Part shown: in pieces, positions 4,170 through 27,113 of the stretch | Numbering within the stretch: position 1 is the first letter of the stretch | How the letters are laid out: each line of letters starts with the position of its first letter | NCBI GenBank assembly: GCA_050116835.1 | Contig: JASFNW010000006.1 | Span: 457 to 64,456 of the forward strand | DNA length: 64,000 nt | Source of the DNA: Desulfobacterales bacterium | GTDB lineage: Bacteria; Desulfobacterota; Desulfobacteria; Desulfobacterales; JAHEIW01 | Direction: 5' to 3' | Program-made: the position numbers and the translations under genes | The notes under the pieces: model-generated | Told to the model about the DNA's origin: nothing | Databases searched by the model: none | The model's input: only the letters and a program-made list of their open reading frames with translations

Positions 4170-5510
4170 TTAAAGCGGTTTATCGATCACTTCATATAAA
4201 ATATCACTGATAAATTTAATCTCATAGCCGAGTCCATAGTGATGATTGATATCCTCAAGGCCGCTGTGGCAATTGTGGCAGGGCGCGATGAGTATTTTGG
4301 CACCCTTGGACTTGGCTGCAAATAGCTGCTCGGCTTTGATGCGATTGCCCTGCACGCGCGTCATCTTATACGGCGGCCCGCAATTGATCACTCCGCCGCC
4401 GGCGCAGCAGCAGTAATTGTGCTCGCGATTGGGATGCATCTCGATCAGCTCTTCGCAGATGGCGTTGATCACAAAGCGGGCTTTATCCGCCAAACCGCCG
4501 CCGCGAACAACATTGCACGGATCATGCAAGGTAACGGGCTCCTTGAATTTCTGGCTGATGGTGATCTTTTTATCTTTGATCAATTCGTAATAGAAATCAA
4601 TGGCATGAACAATGGGAATGGGCGGCATGCGCCAGCCCAACCAGCGGTTGCCCACATCATACACCGAACGAAAGGCATGGCCGCATTCGCCCATTACAAT
4701 CCGGTTGACCCGCAGCCGCGCAGCGGTATCAAAATGGGCCCGCTTGACGCGCCCCATGACCTCATTATCACCGGTGAACATGGCCATGTCGCTGTTGTCC
4801 CAACCGGGCGTGGCCGGCATGGTCCAGTCGACGCCGGCCACATCCATAATCACCGCCGCCTGGTAGAGTAGCTGGGCCTGAAATTTGGGTTCGGGCCCGA
4901 TGACCGAATACATGATGTCGGCCCCTTCTTTCTCCAGCGGAATCCGCAGGGTCGGTATTTCAGCCTGGGCCTCCTCCTCCTGCCACTGCAGGGTGTCAAT
5001 CCATTCATCATCTTTTACCCACATCTGGTTCATGGTCACCGAATGACTGTGGGCTGTATCCTGAATGTAGAGCGGGGTAACGCCCAGCAGATGACAGATG
5101 CGCCTGACGGTCAGCATCAGGTAGGCGATGTCGATGCCGAACGGACAATACTGGGCACAGCGCTTGCACAAATTGCACTGGGTTGACGCAATTTCGGATG
5201 CCTCTTTGATGAAATCGGCGCTCACTTTTCCTTTGGCCTTTATCATTTTCCACAGGGTTTGCTTCACCTTGCCCACCGGCGAATACCTGGGATCATTGTC
5301 ATGCGACAGGTAATAGTGGCAGGCTTCAGAGCACAGGCCGCAGTGGACGCAGGTTTCGACATAAGCCTTTAGCCGGGCGCCGGATTCGCCTTTTAAGACA
5401 CGGTTGATGACTTTTTGGATTCGCTCCTCGGTCAGATTTTGGGCACCGACTTCCAGGCCTTCGTCGATTACCTTCTTTTCTTCCTTTTTCTCTTGTGCTG
5501 CTTCAGCCAT
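4170..5510 (-). CDS. tmcB: HdrD/DsrK-like iron-sulfur protein with CCG domains (TmcB-like)
   Basis: Two 4Fe-4S ferredoxin motifs (CVHCGLCSEAC, CNLCKRCAQYCP) and CCG-type Cys-rich regions (PCNVVRGGG, NYCCCAGGG, APCHNCHSG). I moved the start to ATG 5510 (MAEAAQEKK, GGAGGG RBS upstream). The longer track ORF (to 5594) runs through an intergenic repeat. Confidence 0.75.
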   Translation of the reverse strand: MAEAAQEKKEEKKVIDEGLEVGAQNLTEERIQKVINRVLKGESGARLKAYVETCVHCGLCSEACHYYLSHDNDPRYSPVGKVKQTLWKMIKAKGKVSADFIKEASEIASTQCNLCKRCAQYCPFGIDIAYLMLTVRRICHLLGVTPLYIQDTAHSHSVTMNQMWVKDDEWIDTLQWQEEEAQAEIPTLRIPLEKEGADIMYSVIGPEPKFQAQLLYQAAVIMDVAGVDWTMPATPGWDNSDMAMFTGDNEVMGRVKRAHFDTAARLRVNRIVMGECGHAFRSVYDVGNRWLGWRMPPIPIVHAIDFYYELIKDKKITISQKFKEPVTLHDPCNVVRGGGLADKARFVINAICEELIEMHPNREHNYCCCAGGGVINCGPPYKMTRVQGNRIKAEQLFAAKSKGAKILIAPCHNCHSGLEDINHHYGLGYEIKFISDILYEVIDKPL

Positions 5511-5541
5511 TCTCGCCCTCCTTGGAGACGCTTGTATATTT

Positions 5542-5648
5542 GGGTTTGCCGGTTGCGCCGGTTTAGCCCGTTGAGCCGGTAAATTCGCGAACATTCCAAT
5601 GCACGCTTTTTTTCGGGTTAAACGGCTTAACGGGCAACGGGCTCAACC
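5542..5648. repeat. AACGGGC-type intergenic palindromic element (copy 2, both arms)
   Basis: Left arm GGGTTTGCCGGTTGCGCCGGTTTAGCCCGTTGAGCCGGTAAA (5542-5583). Right arm GGGTTAAACGGCTTAACGGGCAACGGGCTCAACC (5615-5648). GGTTTAGCCCGTTG pairs with CAACGGGCTCAACC at 13 of 14 positions. Confidence 0.65.
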
Positions 5649-6366: not shown

Positions 6367-7674
6367 TTAGCGTGAAATCTCTTCGACAGGTACAACGTGG
6401 CGTACGTAGCGACCGTTATTGAGTGTGCGCAGCAGAATCTTATCGCCTTCGGGACTGAACGCGGGATCCCAGATCGCATCAAAGTTCTGATCCCAGATGC
6501 GATCATTTACCGCAATGCTGTATCGGCCGTTTCTTTCAATTTTGGCAGCAAGCATATTACCGTCAGGGCTGAAGATGGGCGGCCAGACTCTGTCAAAGCT
6601 GTTTTGCCACACGTCGCCGTCTGCAACAATAAACCAGCGCCCGTCACTTTTGGCCGCCGCCGCAACGCGTTTGCCGTCCGGGCTGAAGACGGCATCCGTG
6701 AGCAGGTCTTTGAAGGTGACCGGCCAGGGGCGCCCGTTGACGGCAACCGTCCATCGGCCGTATTTGGGCGCCACGATTGCCGCCAGCGTTCGGCCGTCGG
6801 AGCTGACCATCGGACGCCAGAGCTGCACAAATTTGCGATCCCAGACGATCTGTCCATCCTGGGCCAGCAACCACTTGCCGCCGGTTCTGACGGGTGCGAT
6901 AACGGCATTGTTTCCAGGATTAAAGATGGGCTCCCAGACACAATCAAATGTTTGCGGCCAGGGAGTACCATCGACGGCTATCGTGTATTCGTAAAGATTC
7001 AGACGAACCTCAGCTGCCAGTTTTTCACCATCTGCACTCATGGCCGTTTTCCAGACATTGACAAAGGTTGTATCCCAGGGTTGTCCGTCTGCAGCCGCGG
7101 TAAAAGCACCCTCTTGAAATTTATGAATTTCGCCTTCGCCAAATTCGACCACCTGCACGGCAGCGGCTGTGCGGGAGCCGTCGGGGCTGAGCGTGGGGTT
7201 GGTCATGTTGGGAAATGTTTTTTCCCAGACGGCATCGTTTAAGGCCATGCCGTAGGTCATATCCTGCTGGACGGCGACGGCAATGTTTTGCCCGTCCGGG
7301 CTGAACTGCATGTCCCACGCATAGCCGAATCGATGCTCCCAGGGCCTGCCGTCCACCGCCACGGTCCATTCGCCCGTTTCGGACACGAAAGCGACCGCGC
7401 GGCCGTCGGGTGTAAACCGCAGGTGCCAGATTTTATCAAAGACCGTCTCCCACGGCTTTCCGTTCACACAGACGTTAAACTCGCCTTCGGCCAGGTTGAC
7501 GATGGCAGCCAGCTGTTCACCGTTCGGACTGACGTAGGGCTCCTCCACCCAGTTGTAGTTTTCATGCCACTGGCGGATATCGGCTATTTCTTTGCTGCCT
7601 GGTTCCCAATCCCATTCAATTCGTGTCAGCATTTGTTCAACTCCCGTTTGCTTGGTTTGGCTTTCATTCGCCAC
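6367..7674 (-). CDS. tmcD: tryptophan-rich repeat protein (TmcD-like)
   Basis: 435 aa, no signal peptide. About ten tandem ~45-aa repeats of the form FSPDG..A....G.W.V.VDG.PW...FD.VW.P. The track start at 7674 is GTG. ATG 7632 (MLTRIEWDW), with GGGAG 8 nt upstream, is an alternative start. Confidence 0.65.
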   Translation of the reverse strand: MANESQTKQTGVEQMLTRIEWDWEPGSKEIADIRQWHENYNWVEEPYVSPNGEQLAAIVNLAEGEFNVCVNGKPWETVFDKIWHLRFTPDGRAVAFVSETGEWTVAVDGRPWEHRFGYAWDMQFSPDGQNIAVAVQQDMTYGMALNDAVWEKTFPNMTNPTLSPDGSRTAAAVQVVEFGEGEIHKFQEGAFTAAADGQPWDTTFVNVWKTAMSADGEKLAAEVRLNLYEYTIAVDGTPWPQTFDCVWEPIFNPGNNAVIAPVRTGGKWLLAQDGQIVWDRKFVQLWRPMVSSDGRTLAAIVAPKYGRWTVAVNGRPWPVTFKDLLTDAVFSPDGKRVAAAAKSDGRWFIVADGDVWQNSFDRVWPPIFSPDGNMLAAKIERNGRYSIAVNDRIWDQNFDAIWDPAFSPEGDKILLRTLNNGRYVRHVVPVEEISR

Positions 7675-20831: not shown

Positions 20832-22046
20832 TTAGAAGCCGTGTTTTTCGACGGGGGCAGCCCGGGTCGGATTCTGGTTCTCAGATTCAGCCTGCAAATT
20901 GACAAATATTTTTTGCGGGGCGACCCGATCAATTTTAACCCCGAATGGCAAAAACATATTTTTGGCCGAAAGCCGGATGAAGTGCCTGCCGGCATCGATA
21001 TTGCTCAGGTCGACACTCACCTGCACATCTTTATCTTTAAGGGTTCGAATTTTATTGCGCCGTCCCGACAGGGTTAAATCAACAGTTGTCGTCGATCCTT
21101 CGCCCACGATCAGCTGATCGGGAACGTGGATATATTGCACGGGTACCGCGACGGTCAGCTCTGATTCCTGCTGACTTGCCAGGGCGAACCACGCAATTGT
21201 GACAAGGGCCAGCGCACCGAGCTTGGTTCGCCAATTTTCGACAAAAAGCCCTTTAAAGAAATCCTTTACGGCGGGCACGTTGATTTGCGGGCCGCCGATC
21301 ACTTCATTCAGGTGTGCCGTTAATGCGTCCGGATCCTGCCAGGTGACAATTTTTCCGCCCGTTACCGTGGCAACCTCCGAGCGCTCTTCGGAAACCACCA
21401 GACATACCGCATCCGTGACTTCAGACAGGCCCAGCGCTGCCCGATGACGCGTGCCGTATTGAGCCGGCAAATTTTCATTCTCCGATAACGGTAGAATACA
21501 GCCCATCTGGGTAATACGGTCCTGATTTATGATAATGGCGCCGTCATGCGCCGGCGCATGGCGGTTAAATATACTTTTGATCAGGGCCGGATCGGGCAGG
21601 GCCATAATGGGCTGACCGGCGTGAATAAATTCGGAGGGGTTGTCGTTTCTGACCAGTACCATCAAAGCACCGGTCCGGTCGGCAGCCATTTCAAATAGCA
21701 TCTGACACAGTTCTTTGCCAAAAGTCTTCTTGAAAGCACGTCGACGGGATCGCAGGTAGCGCATGGGGCTGACTCTTTCAAGAACCTGGCGGATTTCACT
21801 CTGAAACAAAATCAGCAATAAAATAAGAAGGACTTGCCAAAGGATTTGAAAGACCCATGTGGTCAAATAAAGGTCCCACAATTTGGCGATCGAATAAACC
21901 CCGCCCAGAGCCACCAGGCCGATAATAACCCGCAATGCGCGACTTTCACGGAACCACACGTATAAATGGTAAACAACAACCGTCAGAAACAAGATATCGA
22001 CAATATCGCGCCACATGGGCGTCGGAATAAGACCAATCAGGTACAC
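20832..22046 (-). CDS. cdaA: diadenylate cyclase CdaA fused to a YbbR/CdaR-like domain
   Basis: N-terminal TM helices are followed by a DAC domain (..TGALMVL..HDGAIII..GTRHRAALGLSE..VVSEERSEVA..). Then comes a further TM segment and a C-terminal YbbR-like beta-domain (ELTVAVPVQYIHVPDQL..VDLSNIDAGRHFIRL..). Start set at GTG 22046 (GGAG 6 nt upstream); ATG 22016 is also possible. The track start at 22109 is unlikely. Confidence 0.8.
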   Translation of the reverse strand: MYLIGLIPTPMWRDIVDILFLTVVVYHLYVWFRESRALRVIIGLVALGGVYSIAKLWDLYLTTWVFQILWQVLLILLLILFQSEIRQVLERVSPMRYLRSRRRAFKKTFGKELCQMLFEMAADRTGALMVLVRNDNPSEFIHAGQPIMALPDPALIKSIFNRHAPAHDGAIIINQDRITQMGCILPLSENENLPAQYGTRHRAALGLSEVTDAVCLVVSEERSEVATVTGGKIVTWQDPDALTAHLNEVIGGPQINVPAVKDFFKGLFVENWRTKLGALALVTIAWFALASQQESELTVAVPVQYIHVPDQLIVGEGSTTTVDLTLSGRRNKIRTLKDKDVQVSVDLSNIDAGRHFIRLSAKNMFLPFGVKIDRVAPQKIFVNLQAESENQNPTRAAPVEKHGF

Positions 22047-22266
22047 AGGTGACTCCGTATTCGATTCGCAGACACGTCTGGCCCGGCAAGAACAGTTTCT
22101 TGCGGCCACCGAATTTTAAGAGGATATAAAAGAATTCTAACAGGATAACCGGCATTCGTCAATTTTGCCGCCGCCGCCGGATTTTATAACGTTAAGAGGA
22201 AAGGCGATATTTGCAAAGATATGACAGTGATAAAAAAACGCGTAAATCGATGGCCTTAGCCCCACA

Positions 22267-22617
22267 TTAGCCTGCATAGGGTTTCCCGCATTCTTTACAG
22301 CGCCCATCCGGACCGATGACGCCGATGCAGCTTTCATCACTGCAAAGCGTGCGATTTTCCCAGTCATCGCCATTGTCGGATGTCGGTGGCACATCAGCAA
22401 CTGCCGCATCGGCTGCCTGGTTTTCATAAGATTCGGCAGTGTGGGCTTTATCTTCAGTTTGCTCTTTTTCATAAGGCCGGCCACATTCCTTACAGCGCCC
22501 ATCGGGGCCGATGACGCCGATGCAACTTTCATCGCGGCACAAGATGCGATTTTCCCATTTGTTATCATCCGATTCATTTTCCTCTTCGCCGTTAAATTCG
22601 ACAGGCTCTTCCGACAT
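22267..22617 (-). CDS. acidic protein with two tandem zinc-ribbon-like repeats
   Basis: 116 aa. WENRILCRDESCIGVIGPDGRCKECGRPY and WENRTLCSDESCIGVIGPDGRCKECGKPY (C-x4-C..C-x2-C) are separated by an acidic linker. The stop lies 3 nt from the HAD gene. Confidence 0.6.
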   Translation of the reverse strand: MSEEPVEFNGEEENESDDNKWENRILCRDESCIGVIGPDGRCKECGRPYEKEQTEDKAHTAESYENQAADAAVADVPPTSDNGDDWENRTLCSDESCIGVIGPDGRCKECGKPYAG

Positions 22618-22619
22618 TT

Positions 22620-23237
22620 CTACACCTCCAGTAAGCTTTCAAGTTCTTTTAGACTTTCGATATGATAGGGTGCCGGCAAGGCTTCGTTGCGATACGCGAC
22701 GAAGGGCACATTTGCCGCTTGCGCCGCCTCGGCATCCACCTGTGAATCGCCCACATACAGGGCCTGATCGGAGGCGACACCAAAATGGGATATGACTTTC
22801 AGCAACATGTCCGGGTGCGGCTTGGGTCGCGGGATATCAACCGAGGTGACCACCAGATCAAAATAATCGGTTAATTTAAATTCAGCCAGCAGCCGATCGA
22901 TCGTATCGGTACGGTTGGTTGCAATAGCAGTGCTGAATTGGGGCCTTATCCGTTTGAGCAGCGCGGCCAGATCAGGTTCAACTTTCAAATATTTAATGAA
23001 TTGGCCGTAATCCATCTGTCGACGATAGGCGTGCACCGCCGCAATGCTTTGCGCGCCACCGAATAGATGTGCGATGGATTCATTTAATGTATGCTGATGG
23101 GCATAGGCAAACTGATCGGCCGTCATTGCCGGTTTGCCGAAATGCGCCAGAATATGATTGTAATACGCCCGGTTGGCCGCTTCGGTGTCAAAAAGAACGC
23201 CGTCGCAGTCAAATGCAACAACACGAATATTTTTCAT
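22620..23237 (-). CDS. HAD-IA family hydrolase (phosphoglycolate-phosphatase-like)
   Basis: 205 aa. Motif I FDCDGVLFDT, motif II ATNR, motif III/IV K..YVGDSQVDAEAA. Confidence 0.8.
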   Translation of the reverse strand: MKNIRVVAFDCDGVLFDTEAANRAYYNHILAHFGKPAMTADQFAYAHQHTLNESIAHLFGGAQSIAAVHAYRRQMDYGQFIKYLKVEPDLAALLKRIRPQFSTAIATNRTDTIDRLLAEFKLTDYFDLVVTSVDIPRPKPHPDMLLKVISHFGVASDQALYVGDSQVDAEAAQAANVPFVAYRNEALPAPYHIESLKELESLLEV

Positions 23238-23243
23238 ATGGAT

Positions 23244-24320
23244 TTACTGGGTTTGCTCTTTTTTTTCTGCGGGCCGTTGCCGCAGATCACCATAAACCCG
23301 GATTCTCAGTTTGGGCTGAATCTTGCTGTCAGTTTCCAGAGTGATCATATCAAAATAGCGCCCTTGCTGTAATCGCTTGTTTTCAATTAGCAGCGCGTAA
23401 ACCGGTCCATGCTCGCCTTTTTCTTCCGACAGTTCAAAACGAATATCTTTCCCGTCTCTGGCACTGACCTTAACGATTTTGAAAGGATATTTCTTTTCAG
23501 GAGTAATCATCACTTTTCTTTTGATCTTATCTCCGGCTACCCCCCGCAATTTAACCCGGTTGGGCTTTATGGTAACAAATTTATTTACGCTACCGCTAAC
23601 GGTAAGCTTCAACCGTGGGTTTTTTTCATCGTTCGTGAAAAGAGTGGCACGTTTGCGGATCATTTGGCCGCCCTTATTATGGGTGTTTACCTTAAGCGTT
23701 ACTTTGCCCTCACCACCGGGAGGGATCTGCCTCGTGTAAGAGGCCGCCGTGCACCCTCAGTCGGTCTTAACTCTGCGAATTTCGAGCGGGGCCGAGCCCT
23801 TGTTCTGAACGACAAATGCATGGGCAACCTCCTGGCCTTCAACCACCGGATTGAATCTGTAGACGGCGGCGGGAAGAACTGCCAGCGGCTGCTTATGGGA
23901 AATCTGCAAAATCTCGACGCGTTCACTCCGCACAGAATCTTGGCTGCCACTCTTTTGCGCTGTGGTTTGAGTGTCAGCAAATGTTCTGGTTATCAGACGG
24001 CTTTTGGCAATACCTTGTTTTAAAAACCATTGTTGAACAGCCTGGACCCGTTTTTGTGAAACCGCATGATTCTCCTGAGGGGTGCCATTTTGATGGGCGT
24101 ATCCTACAATGCGCAGCCCCATGGCCGGATCGCCCTTTAGCGCTGCCTGAATTTTCTGTAAATCATGTTCAAATTTCGGATTGATCTCGGCGGAATCAAT
24201 TTTAAAATAAAGCGTCGCCAAATCGACCGGCAAGCTGTCTGCTCTGGCGCCGTGAGCATGGGTGACAAAGCAACCGATATATAAAGCGAAACCAAAGATT
24301 GCACCTGCCTTTTTTAACAT
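23244..24320 (-). CDS. exported OmpA-like / DUF1573 protein with in-frame TGA (candidate selenocysteine) at 23757-23759
   Basis: Track ORFs 23757-24320 and 23244-23663 are in the same frame. Only TGA plus 31 sense codons separate them. Read-through gives ..GSAPLEIRRVKTD-U-GCTAASYTRQIPPGGEGKVTLKVNTHNKGGQMIRKRATLFTNDEKNP... This is the DUF1573 hallmark (..SCGCT...I.PG..G.I.V......G...K.I...SN) with TGA at the first Cys. The N-terminus has a signal peptide and an OmpA-C-like domain. Confidence 0.6.
23700..23759 (-). promoter_or_regulatory. candidate SECIS region 3' of the in-frame UGA
   Basis: The mRNA is UGAGGGUGCACGGCGGCCUCUUACACGAGGCAGAUCCCUCCCGGUGGUGAGGGC. Possible helices by eye: GAGGG/CCCUC lower stem with GCCUC/GAGGC upper stem (loop UUACAC), or CCCUC/GAGGG with a GGU-containing loop. 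Not scored against a SECIS model. Confidence 0.3.
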
Positions 24321-24527
24321 TAGACTTACTCCTTCCGTAATCTAAAAATTGACTGACTATAGAAATTTTATGTTGCCTGTTCATGGATGTCAAGCATCTG
24401 GCGATTAAGCGTCTGATTATCTTCGTTTTTACGCTCTTGCTAGATTCGATCGGCGCATAAAAAAACCGGTCGAATAACGTTTGAATTTTGTTCGAGGGCA
24501 CGGCGCAATCTTTTTTTTGATAAATTT

Positions 24528-24672
24528 AAACGGCCTCGCAAACCTTTAGTTCTTGTTCGAGGGCAAGGCGAAATCCGGTTCGAAAACGGAGCGTACACGT
24601 TAGTACGCGAGTATTTTGGACCGGATTTTAACACTGCCATCGGGCAAGAGATGAGGGTTTGCGAGGCCGTTT
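24528..24672. repeat. long nested hairpin element immediately downstream of priA
   Basis: Outer arms AAACGGCCTCGCAAACC (24528-24544) / GGTTTGCGAGGCCGTTT (24656-24672) are perfect 17-mers. Middle stem AAATCCGGT (24571-24579) / ACCGGATTT (24620-24628). Inner stem GCGTAC (24591-24596) / GTACGC (24603-24608). Confidence 0.6.
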
Positions 24673-27113
24673 TAGAGGAGGGAGACCGGGTCAACATCTA
24701 CGACAACCCTCACCCTGCGATTATTGAACACCGCCGGATGATCAGCCATCAGCCGACCAACAAATTCATGCAGGTCTTTGACGCGCGTGCCCTTCAAAAG
24801 AATCTGCCAGCGATACCGGCGGGCAATTTTGGCCAATGAGGATTCTATTGGCCCTAAAACGTCAACGGTATCATAAACAGGCGCATTTGACGTTTTCAAA
24901 GTTAGGCACAAATTTCCGAGGCGAGCGGCATGGTCCCGGGTGTGTTGCGGGTCCATACTTGATATCCGCAGCTGGATCATTCTTGAAAACGGCGGATATT
25001 TCAGCGTCCGGCGAAAATGTATCTCCTGTTTGTAAAAAGCCGTATAATTTTGATCTTTCGCCGCGGAAATACTGAAATGCTCCGGATTATATGTTTGTAA
25101 AATGACCCGTCCCGGAGCGTCGCCTCTGCCTGCACGGCCTGCCACCTGGGCAATCAGCTGAAAGGTGCGTTCACCTGCTCTAAAATCAGGAAAGCTGAGT
25201 GATAAATCAGCACAGATAATTCCCACCAGGGTGATATTTGGAAAATCGTGACCTTTGGCCACCATCTGGGTACCCACCAGAATATCGATTGATTGATCAT
25301 TAAGGCCTTTGAGTAATCTCAAAATACTTCCTTTGCGGGTGGTGGTATCCCTATCCATGCGCGCAACACGGGCTTCCGGAAAAATTTTTTGCACTGTGGC
25401 TTCAATCTTTTCGGTACCCAGGCCTATTTTTTTGATGTCAGAAGATTTGCAACTATCACAGCTGAGGGTCGCCGCCCGGGAAAATCCACAGTAATGGCAA
25501 CGAAGCGCATTGGCCTTCCGATGGTAGGTCAGGGAAATATCACAATGTCGACATCGCAGGGCCTGGCCGCATGATCGACAGAGGGCAAAATTGGCAAACC
25601 CGCGACGATTGATAAAAAGCAGTATCTGCTCTTTGCGATCCAGGGTCTGCTTCATCGACCGATGTAGTTCAGGTGTAATAAAGCGCCGAATCCCCCGGTA
25701 TCCCATGCTTTCACGAAGATCCACAATTTTTATGTCGGGCAACGAGCGCCGTTCGATACGCTGTTTCAGATTAACTTCGATGAATTTTCCGATGCGGGCA
25801 TTATAATAGGACTGGATAGAGGGTGTAGCGGATCCCAGCAGGACCAGGCAATTATTTTGTTTTGCCCTGACCACCGCCAGATCCCGGGCATTGTATCTCA
25901 AATTGTTTTCCTGTTTGTAAGAAGTGTCATGCTCTTCATCCACGATCACGAGACCGACCTCAGAAAATGGGGCAAAAACAGCCGACCGCGCACCAATAGC
26001 GATCTGAGCTTTGCCCTGCACGATAAGACTCCATTGATCAAACCGCTCACCGGCCGAAAGACCACTGTGCAGCACGGCGATACGCTCGCCGAAGCGGGCA
26101 CGAAAGCGCCGTTCCATCTGCGTAATCAGGGCAATCTCTGGAACCAGAACCAGAACGGATTGACGCCGCTTGAGGACTTCGGCCGTGATTTGCATGTAAA
26201 CCTCGGTTTTGCCGCTGCCGGTGACGCCTTGCAGCAGAAAGGCCGCAAAACCCTGATCTAATCTGTCGTTGACCTGTGTGACGACGCTTTGCTGTTCGGC
26301 ATTTAACTCATGGGCCGTATCCGCACGAATGGTCTCTCCAAATGGATCTCGGTAGACGCGTTTTCGTCGAACCGTCAGGTAGCCGCCATTTTCTAGTGCC
26401 CGAACCAGGCGGGCTGCATTGGGGGCCTGCTTTTTTAAATCAGGCATTGACATTTCACCCTGCCGGCCGAGGATTTTAATGATCTTCTGACGGGCTTTTG
26501 AAAGTCGATCCACCGGAGCATCTGGCTTGCTCAGCGCAATATAACGTTCGGTACGCGTTCGGGTTGAAGCCCCTCTCAGTTCTCGCGTCTTTGCAATCCA
26601 TCCGCTGCGCTGCAATGCCTGTAACAGTGCACCGGGCACATTTTGGCTCAACTTGTCGTTAAGGTGTTTCAGGCGACAGGGCCCGGATTCAAGCAGCTGC
26701 AATACCGATCGTTGAAGGGAGGTGACGGTTTTGTTTCTTAATGCGGCCTTACCTTCGGCTGTAATCGACACGGCAGCATAATCATAAAGGGTAAGACCAC
26801 CGGGAAGCGCGTTTTTGATGACATCACCGATGGGGTGCTTATAATAGTCGGCAATCCATTGATAAAAAGGAATCATCGACGGTGGAAAAAGGGATTGCTG
26901 ATCGAGTACGTCTAAAATATGCTTGATTTCAGCCGGCTCTGTTTCAGTCGCAGAACCCATGATATAGCCGGTTACCCGTCGCTGACCGAATGGTACCAGA
27001 ACGCGTTTGCCCGCGGTAATGAATGGGCTCAAAAAAGGCGGGACGCTGTAAGTAAAGGTATGGTGAACCGGCAACGCAATCGCAATTTCGAGATGTGAGT
27101 TTTCGACAGTCAT
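24672..27113 (-). CDS. priA: primosomal replication-restart helicase PriA
   Basis: 813 aa. Walker A GVTGSGKTEVY, DEEHD box, Cys-rich zinc-binding insertion (CRSCGQALRCRHCDISLTYHRKANALRCHYCG), C-terminal domain. Confidence 0.95.
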   Translation of the reverse strand: MTVENSHLEIAIALPVHHTFTYSVPPFLSPFITAGKRVLVPFGQRRVTGYIMGSATETEPAEIKHILDVLDQQSLFPPSMIPFYQWIADYYKHPIGDVIKNALPGGLTLYDYAAVSITAEGKAALRNKTVTSLQRSVLQLLESGPCRLKHLNDKLSQNVPGALLQALQRSGWIAKTRELRGASTRTRTERYIALSKPDAPVDRLSKARQKIIKILGRQGEMSMPDLKKQAPNAARLVRALENGGYLTVRRKRVYRDPFGETIRADTAHELNAEQQSVVTQVNDRLDQGFAAFLLQGVTGSGKTEVYMQITAEVLKRRQSVLVLVPEIALITQMERRFRARFGERIAVLHSGLSAGERFDQWSLIVQGKAQIAIGARSAVFAPFSEVGLVIVDEEHDTSYKQENNLRYNARDLAVVRAKQNNCLVLLGSATPSIQSYYNARIGKFIEVNLKQRIERRSLPDIKIVDLRESMGYRGIRRFITPELHRSMKQTLDRKEQILLFINRRGFANFALCRSCGQALRCRHCDISLTYHRKANALRCHYCGFSRAATLSCDSCKSSDIKKIGLGTEKIEATVQKIFPEARVARMDRDTTTRKGSILRLLKGLNDQSIDILVGTQMVAKGHDFPNITLVGIICADLSLSFPDFRAGERTFQLIAQVAGRAGRGDAPGRVILQTYNPEHFSISAAKDQNYTAFYKQEIHFRRTLKYPPFSRMIQLRISSMDPQHTRDHAARLGNLCLTLKTSNAPVYDTVDVLGPIESSLAKIARRYRWQILLKGTRVKDLHEFVGRLMADHPAVFNNRRVRVVVDVDPVSLL

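Follow-up and report, generated by a model that had tools for sequence, protein, structure and literature searches.

A probable selenoprotein gene of the known OS_HP2/DUF1573 family with a candidate two-hairpin SECIS element downstream of its UGA

Two open reading frames (ORFs) on the minus strand of the window (the whole stretch of DNA analysed, 64,000 nt) lie at 23757–24320 and 23244–23663, and share a single frame. The gap between them consists of a TGA codon (23757–23759) and 31 sense codons. The locus raises the question of whether it holds two genes, one damaged gene, or one gene in which the TGA is read as selenocysteine (Sec). The region 23244–24320 is very probably one gene, whose product is a selenoprotein, predicted to be exported, of the known OS_HP2/DUF1573 "U-G-C" family, and the in-frame TGA almost certainly encodes Sec.

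Gene layout and family membership

The coordinates, the common frame and the translation of the two ORFs agree with the first-pass annotation of this DNA, which had joined them into one gene whose recoded UGA takes the place of the first Cys in a DUF1573 C-G-C motif. The joined frame is directly observed, and its read-through product is 358 aa long (...IRRVKTD-[TGA]-GCTAASYTRQIPPGGEGK...). The order of its domains is signal peptide, OmpA-like domain, DUF1573 domain (across the TGA) and second Ig-like domain. The U-G-C codons read TGA-GGG-TGC at 23759–23751. The locus comprises the following features:

24365–24393, minus strand: candidate sigma-70-like promoter TTGACA-17-TAAAAT, the best site in a scan of 22000–24750, assigned by an 11/12 consensus match only
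24329–24336, minus strand: strong Shine-Dalgarno sequence GGAAGGAG, 8 nt upstream of ATG 24320, read from the sequence
23244–24320, minus strand: complete gene of the probable selenoprotein, 358 codons including one UGA (Sec188), plus a TAA stop (23244–23246)
24320 to 23757, minus strand: upstream ORF, 187 aa, ending in the TGA at 23757–23759
23663 to 23244, minus strand: downstream ORF, 139 aa, its ATG (23663) lying after 93 nt (31 sense codons)
24249–24320, minus strand: probable signal peptide (MLKK, hydrophobic core, AHG/A), predicted from the sequence and the alignment
23937–24209, minus strand: OmpA-like (peptidoglycan-associated) domain, residues 38–128, PF00691
23586–23873, minus strand: DUF1573/OS_HP2 Ig-like beta-sandwich, residues 150–245, containing U188-G-C190
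23757–23759, minus strand: UGA, almost certainly the Sec188 codon; TGA in 85/86 loci, C-x-C in distant homologues
23751–23753, minus strand: Cys190 codon TGC, partner Cys of U-G-C; invariant in the protein alignment, TGC or TGT in 84/84 sequences
23247–23585, minus strand: C-terminal second Ig-like beta-sandwich with a Lys/Glu-rich tail, predicted from a homologue model, the alignment and tandem Ig/ASH-like matches

The Pfam match to DUF1573 (PF07610) crosses the TGA, covering residues 153–245 with 68.8 bits against a cutoff of 26.1. The OmpA match (PF00691, residues 38–128) scores 55.3 bits against a cutoff of 27.2. By eye, the OmpA-like NHAVSQKRVQAV retains the Asn and Arg of N-x-x-L-S-x-x-R-A, and GYAHQNG in the same domain has His where the G-x-T-D motif usually has Asp. 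Of 85 related loci, about 20 have an OmpA domain, which is confined to a "long form" subclade. In some homologues the core of the signal peptide contains a lipobox-like Cys.

The product matches the NCBIfam model NF041425, "OS_HP2 family (seleno)protein", with 144.3 bits (E = 1.1e-42) where the cutoff is 100. Residues 150–245 align to positions 2–97 of the 98-position profile, and membership of the family is a direct observation. OS_HP2 was defined from two TGA genes of Olavius algarvensis symbionts (delta1 and delta4), and in 2007 it had two Sec members and no Cys homologues (PMC1976440). A "DUF1573 domain-containing protein, PF07610, motif UGC" is listed as a prokaryotic selenoprotein in a 2022 review (PMC9312934), and the same DUF1573/PF07610/UGC entry appears in a 2026 review (PMC13188914); both credit Zhang & Gladyshev 2007 (PMC1976440). 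OS_HP2 can be equated with this entry because they share that reference, because the neighbours of the entry in the table are the COG1810/DUF166 family and OS_HP3, and because the same residues match PF07610 and NF041425. Because the family dates from a 2007 description and is covered by an NCBI model of its own, the gene is of an already-known kind, correctly called and not a discovery. The first-pass annotation had proposed a new selenoprotein family; given the NF041425 match and the reviews citing the 2007 paper, that claim of novelty was wrong and its reading of the sequence was right.

The window gene resembles OS_HP2 in its PF07610 domain, U-G-C motif, Sec position and deltaproteobacterial sulfate-reducer lineage. 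It differs in its N-terminal OmpA-like domain, the mark of the long form, and, whereas no Cys homologues were counted in 2007, many Cys forms now exist. In the literature searched, no experimental report of selenium incorporation for the OS_HP2 family and no paper addressing DUF1573 function were found. What goes beyond the catalogue entries consulted is the candidate SECIS of two hairpins that overlaps PPGGE, the long form with its OmpA fusion, the priA/OS_HP2/HAD synteny and the mis-translation of the family in public protein sets. The 2007 description is extended by about 80 species with a conserved TGA, by many Cys homologues and by a SECIS constraint measured against Cys-form controls. 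There is no new family or mechanism here, and the value lies in supporting evidence and in annotation: one selenoprotein gene, not two ORFs.

The UGA column in relatives

With the read-through product as query, a protein search found 14 homologues, of which three are full length (339–358 aa). At the TGA column 12 are printed with "W" (KTDWGCT); of the other two, P0012 has Cys and the second has C-N-C. This "W" is artefactual. The DNA of three related loci (L001, L002 and L004) has a stop at the column printed "W", and the table 11 translation of the contigs encoding P0001 and P0006 departs from the database protein, with a stop exactly at the "W" column. The gene caller had therefore switched to a TGA=Trp table.

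Relatives were sought in one genome per GTDB species, and 215 species have one. The best 80 of these 215 are all Desulfobacterales or "delta" MAGs, and the closest shares 80% identity with the window gene (88% for its PriA). The first-pass assignment of the DNA to Desulfobacterota is likewise supported, the organism being one of the Desulfobacterales. A set of 86 loci, including 79 Desulfobacterales-type MAG species, four metagenome contigs and the window gene, has TGA at the column in 85 and TGC in one (L005), with pairwise amino-acid identity going down to 39%. This conservation of the TGA is observed in the DNA itself. The ratio of 85:1 is not an unbiased Sec:Cys estimate, because the loci were fetched via peptide patterns that include RQIPPGGE, and the counts are not independent events, because the Sec forms are a related clade. 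Conservation within the family is highest in the 31 codons after the TGA (GCTAxSYTRQIPPGGEG), which the first-pass annotation had taken as a continuation of the domain.

Among 1.84 billion cluster representatives searched with a profile, 32,572 match at E ≤ 1e-3, and the best 150 of them were aligned to the profile (HMM-based) to read the Sec column. Among these best 150, the three residues from the column onward are CGC in 95, CSC in 13, CDC in four and another C-x-C in about nine. WGC is found in six of the 150, again a TGA read as Trp, and about 11 begin 4–6 residues past the Sec column, being truncated calls at the in-frame stop. Cys at the column in distant homologues and TGA in the close ones is what the first-pass annotation had suggested looking for, and the pairing of the two is seen directly in the alignments. 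Sec is thus predicted to take the place of the first Cys in the C-x-C hallmark of the family. That this Cys is the kind of residue that selenium replaces argues for a redox or metal-binding role of the motif. Public protein sets widely misannotate the family, wrongly giving Trp in place of Sec or listing truncated C-terminal fragments.

Candidate SECIS hairpins downstream of the UGA

Two short hairpins can be drawn in the coding region 3′ of the UGA:

23729–23744, minus strand: candidate SECIS hairpin 1, GCCUC-UUACAC-GAGGC, +16 to +31 (U of UGA = 1)
23707–23724, minus strand: candidate SECIS hairpin 2, CCCUCCC-GGU-GG-U-GAGGG, +36 to +53, formed by the codons of I-P-P-G-G-E-G

SECIS-like stem-loops just 3′ of the UGA had been proposed in the first pass, and comparative data bear them out through covariation in hairpin 1 and frozen synonymous sites in hairpin 2. 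In the RNA alignment, which comprises 82 distinct segments of 96 nt, the TGA occupies columns 7–9. Across the relatives hairpin 1 follows the consensus G(C/U)CUC-loop-GAG(G/A)C and hairpin 2 the consensus CCCUCCC-GGY-GG-N-GAGGG, in which the GG of the apical loop is invariant. Over both hairpins 97.7% of cells are paired (99.3% in hairpin 2), versus 39–58% when the partners are slid by 1–3 columns, and RNAalifold independently predicts both. In hairpin 1, the pair between alignment columns 23 and 36 covaries (U-A 33, C-G 27, U-G 22, unpaired 0/82); it joins a non-synonymous Ala/Val/Thr position with a synonymous Arg position. Codons within this hairpin are nearly fixed, with Val as GTC in 56/56 and Thr as ACG in 62/63.

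Hairpin 2 cannot show covariation because it is encoded by the invariant I-P-P-G-G-E-G. Its paired third positions are frozen, with CCT in 83/84, CCC in 81/84, GAG in 84/84, and Ile as ATC or ATT, never ATA. The third positions in its loop and bulge (both Gly codons and the next Gly) vary freely, and Pro codons elsewhere in the gene have a relative entropy of 0.81–0.90. At paired third positions the relative synonymous entropy averages 0.15, versus 0.81 outside the element (Mann-Whitney p = 8e-6), and 0.75 at unpaired third positions within it. The control is a group of seven Cys-form genes that encode the identical [IV]PPGGE peptide. The codon string CCT-CCC-GGN-GGN-GAG occurs in 67 of 70 distinct Sec forms versus one of the seven Cys forms (Fisher p = 2.4e-6). 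The peptide is the same and its codons are frozen only in the Sec forms; the constraint is therefore specific to TGA forms and acts at the RNA level, a selection read directly from the codon counts. Such a constraint on TGA forms would be the prediction for a SECIS element, and the Cys forms appear free of it, because their IPPGGE codons are not frozen.

Folded as a single sequence, the 86-nt segment is no more stable than its shuffles (z = −0.32), and its minimum free energy structure does contain both hairpins. Support for the SECIS comes from the comparative data, and thermodynamics alone would not give it. Neither a gathering scan of the whole window nor a permissive scan of 23650–23800 gave an Rfam match; the Rfam SECIS models do not cover the element downstream of UGA188.

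The loop of hairpin 1 is essentially without G. In the textbook data on fdhF, guanosines of the apical loop have a role. With about 40 nt between the UGA and the GG loop of hairpin 2, the spacing reaches or slightly exceeds what is usual for a bacterial SECIS. Apical-loop guanosines have a known role in bacterial SECIS elements according to the legend of Figure 5 in the 2007 paper (PMC1976440). Hairpin 2 is likely to be the SelB-binding element, by analogy, because its loop has the invariant GG and that of hairpin 1 has essentially no G. As in the Escherichia coli fdhF SECIS (textbook description and the Figure 5 legend of PMC1976440), the candidate element is a coding-region structure directly 3′ of the UGA, whose apical loop contains conserved G residues and has a bulged base beside it. 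Unlike the fdhF SECIS, which is one hairpin of about 40 nt, it consists of two short hairpins, carries its bulge on the 3′ side and has its GG loop some 40 nt away from the UGA; both this spacing and the two-hairpin layout are atypical.

Decoding of the UGA, possible function and genomic context

In the proposed mechanism, SelB carrying Sec-tRNA(Sec) would serve ribosomes at UGA188 and would be recruited by the mRNA element directly 3′, that is, by the hairpins at +16 to +31 and +36 to +53. The UGA could alternatively be decoded without a Sec system, through an alternative code (Trp or Gly) or through near-cognate or programmed read-through that places Trp or Cys at position 188. This is improbable. 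Gene callers did choose a TGA=Trp table for short contigs, and the Sec machinery is not seen in the window: the 64-kb stretch has no tRNA, and there is no selA, selB or selD among the 17 window ORFs scanned with NCBIfam. However, eight of the window's 43 long ORFs terminate at TGA, which shows that the genetic code here is the standard one. The column also pairs with Cys, not Trp, in homologues, and the codon is followed by a conserved RNA structure specific to TGA forms. Moreover, the family is curated as a selenoprotein, and the Thermodesulfobacteriota are among the most selenoprotein-rich bacteria (PMC13188914). This richness, the conservation pattern and the curated family together suggest that the genome is Sec-competent. 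A scan of the window for other TGA-joined ORF pairs gave no second convincing selenoprotein.

A slightly less probable alternative is that the UGA is mainly a regulated terminator, with selenium supply selecting either a short, functional OmpA-only protein or the full protein. Sec insertion is inefficient in bacteria, and in the long form a complete OmpA-like domain precedes the UGA. Yet most members of the family are short and have no OmpA domain, termination would leave half a beta-sandwich, and there is no sign of selection for a truncated product in the sequences compared.

Still less credence attaches to a pair of genes, one for a truncated OmpA/half-DUF1573 protein and the other for a C-terminal protein initiated at ATG 23663. 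Mechanical ORF calling does yield two ORFs, and many public proteins begin 4–6 residues past the Sec column. The internal ATG is preceded by AAGGG, which is weak as a Shine-Dalgarno sequence. In the first pass the downstream ORF, if separate, had been described as starting in mid beta-sandwich with no ribosome-binding site. Against two genes, the 31 intervening codons are the best-conserved stretch, the Pfam and NCBIfam domains cross the gap, and the internal Met is not kept in homologues, which have R, K or T. In the homologue model, the split would also fall inside a beta-sandwich. An ordinary Cys or Trp DUF1573 gene in which the TGA arose by sequencing or assembly error or by a recent nonsense mutation (a pseudogene) might be suspected from the database homologues with W, which at first sight look like TGG-to-TGA changes, and from the TGC of L005, but this reading is effectively refuted by the origin of the "W" in a TGA=Trp table, by the stops in the DNA of L001, L002 and L004, and by a TGA in 85 of 86 loci with frame and domain conserved on both sides.

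For the selenoprotein reading, structural clues come from Cys homologues. The AlphaFold2 model of the Cys homologue P0012 (pLDDT 88.9, pTM 0.73, from a 14-sequence alignment) has two Ig-like beta-sandwiches and an N-terminus of low confidence. Its C76-G-C78 is placed where the turn after strand 67–74 meets strand 78–83, with the second Cys opening the strand, and the U-x-C pair of the window gene would accordingly be modelled at or beside an inter-strand turn. Foldseek matches of this model in the PDB are HYDIN/ASH-type Ig domains and an uncharacterised Porphyromonas gingivalis protein (2QSV), with no enzyme fold among them; the PDB sequence search gave only 2QSV (E = 0.005). Cys DUF1573 proteins (P0012/L005, P0061/L086 and 2QSV of P. 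gingivalis) have the same two-domain Ig-like architecture and the same C-x-C position as the window gene, and some also share the downstream HAD hydrolase. They differ in having Cys in place of Sec and in their unfrozen IPPGGE codons.

Exported or periplasmic thiol-disulfide selenoproteins of the DsbA/DsbG-like, thioredoxin-fold UxxC type also combine Sec and a nearby Cys with a signal peptide (here a predicted one). The Sec-Cys pair and the signal peptide are consistent with a redox role in the envelope, and it would be reasonable to draw a redox function from U-G-C. The likeness is a functional analogy, not membership: unlike the thioredoxin-fold proteins, the window gene encodes an Ig-like/ASH-type beta-sandwich with U-x-C spacing. 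Tentatively, the protein may be exported, with the long form held at the peptidoglycan via its OmpA-like domain, and U188/C190 may form either a selenenylsulfide redox couple of the envelope or a site for soft metals or metalloids.

The gene is flanked by PriA upstream and by a HAD-IA hydrolase, a Cys-rich repeat protein and CdaA downstream, in agreement with the first-pass annotation, which had named a HAD hydrolase, a Zn-ribbon protein and CdaA-YbbR. The Cys-rich repeat protein that follows the HAD-IA hydrolase has no family match. The HAD-IA hydrolase gene begins 6 nt past the stop of the selenoprotein gene, and the two are probably co-transcribed. Across 85 loci, priA adjoins the gene in 56 and a HAD hydrolase in 79. 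A HAD hydrolase is also found 3′ of two Cys-form genes (L086 and L088), which are regarded as orthologues and not as distant paralogues because the same hydrolase follows them.

A more ambitious reading, which is rather doubtful, would make OS_HP2 a near-universal, syntenic (priA/OS_HP2/HAD hydrolase) envelope selenoprotein of Desulfobacterales. Its SECIS would be unusual in being bipartite, with a SelB-binding hairpin about 40 nt from the UGA built from the PPGGE codons, so that peptide and RNA would constrain each other, and in its long form the OmpA-like domain would anchor a U-x-C redox or metal site at the peptidoglycan. If true, this envelope, bipartite-SECIS and peptidoglycan-tether reading would be the first clue to what the DUF1573 C-x-C motif does.

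The NCBIfam matches of the 17 window ORFs also include two-component kinases, TmcB/TmcD, a sigma-54 activator, an asparaginase, an OYE-type flavoenzyme and an ABC permease. PriA, CdaA, Upp and a uracil permease are matched in the same set.

Putative export signal and OmpA-like domain

The N-terminal part of the selenoprotein comprises two features:

24249-24320, minus strand, putative signal peptide (columns 7-40 of A1, the protein alignment of homologues)
23937-24209, minus strand, OmpA-like domain

The hydrophobic core of the putative signal peptide contains a conserved Cys, which lies within a canonical lipobox (L-A-S-C or V-A-G-C) in some homologues and in the context Y-I-G-C in the window protein. 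The latter may be a lipoprotein or, alternatively, a substrate of signal peptidase I, with AHG preceding the cleavage site. OmpA-like domains usually carry a G-x-T-D site, the Asp of which contacts diaminopimelate. By eye, this site is occupied by G-Y-A-H in the window protein, and the N-x-x-x-S-x-x-R motif is retained. Judging from these residues, peptidoglycan binding may be altered.

Cysteine-containing relatives and misannotated proteins

Locus L005, at which the priA and HAD neighbours are absent, is the single TGC (Cys) locus within the first set. Of the two SECIS-like stem-loops, hairpin 2 is exactly retained in its nucleotides (L005 10225-10290); hairpin 1 is disrupted by a C-C mismatch in the same interval. 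L005 looks like a recent Sec-to-Cys conversion in which the SECIS element has been left as a fossil. A Cys-form relative is also found at locus L090:

L090 1-412, gene for a 648-aa protein with GTP_EFTU domains
L090 501-1247, Cys-form DUF1573 gene (protein P0039, motif C-S-C), immediately downstream

The 648-aa protein combines its GTP_EFTU domains with a weak SelB beta-barrel match; a SelB-like elongation factor therefore adjoins a Cys member of the selenoprotein family.

Two erroneous versions of the OS_HP2/DUF1573 selenoprotein are present in public protein collections. In one, the Sec position is given as Trp because, for short contigs, the gene caller changed to a code table in which TGA means Trp; the other comprises fragments beginning 4-6 residues past the UGA. 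The entries concerned are proteins P0001-P0011 and P0013, loci L001, L002 and L004, and representatives P0074, P0100, P0115, P0123, P0133, P0135, P0151, P0152, P0154, P0159 and P0160.

Other genes in the window

4170-5594, minus strand, TmcB (835 bits)
6367-7674, minus strand, TmcD (619 bits)
20832-22109, minus strand, CdaA ORF as listed (GTG start)
22267-22617, minus strand, acidic protein of 116 aa with two near-identical repeats

TmcB and TmcD belong to Tmc, a transmembrane complex for electron transfer in sulfate reducers, as two of its subunits, and their presence is consistent with a Desulfobacterales origin. The 116-aa protein, for which no NCBIfam match was found, has the repeat W-E-N-R-x-L-C-x-D-E-S-C-I-G-V-I-G-P-D-G-R-C-K-E-C-G-x-P-Y, and its gene is kept downstream of the HAD gene at 22 related loci. 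The CdaA match starts at residue 32 of the listed ORF, preceded by approximately 30 extra Cys/Arg-rich residues, and the true start probably lies downstream of the listed GTG.
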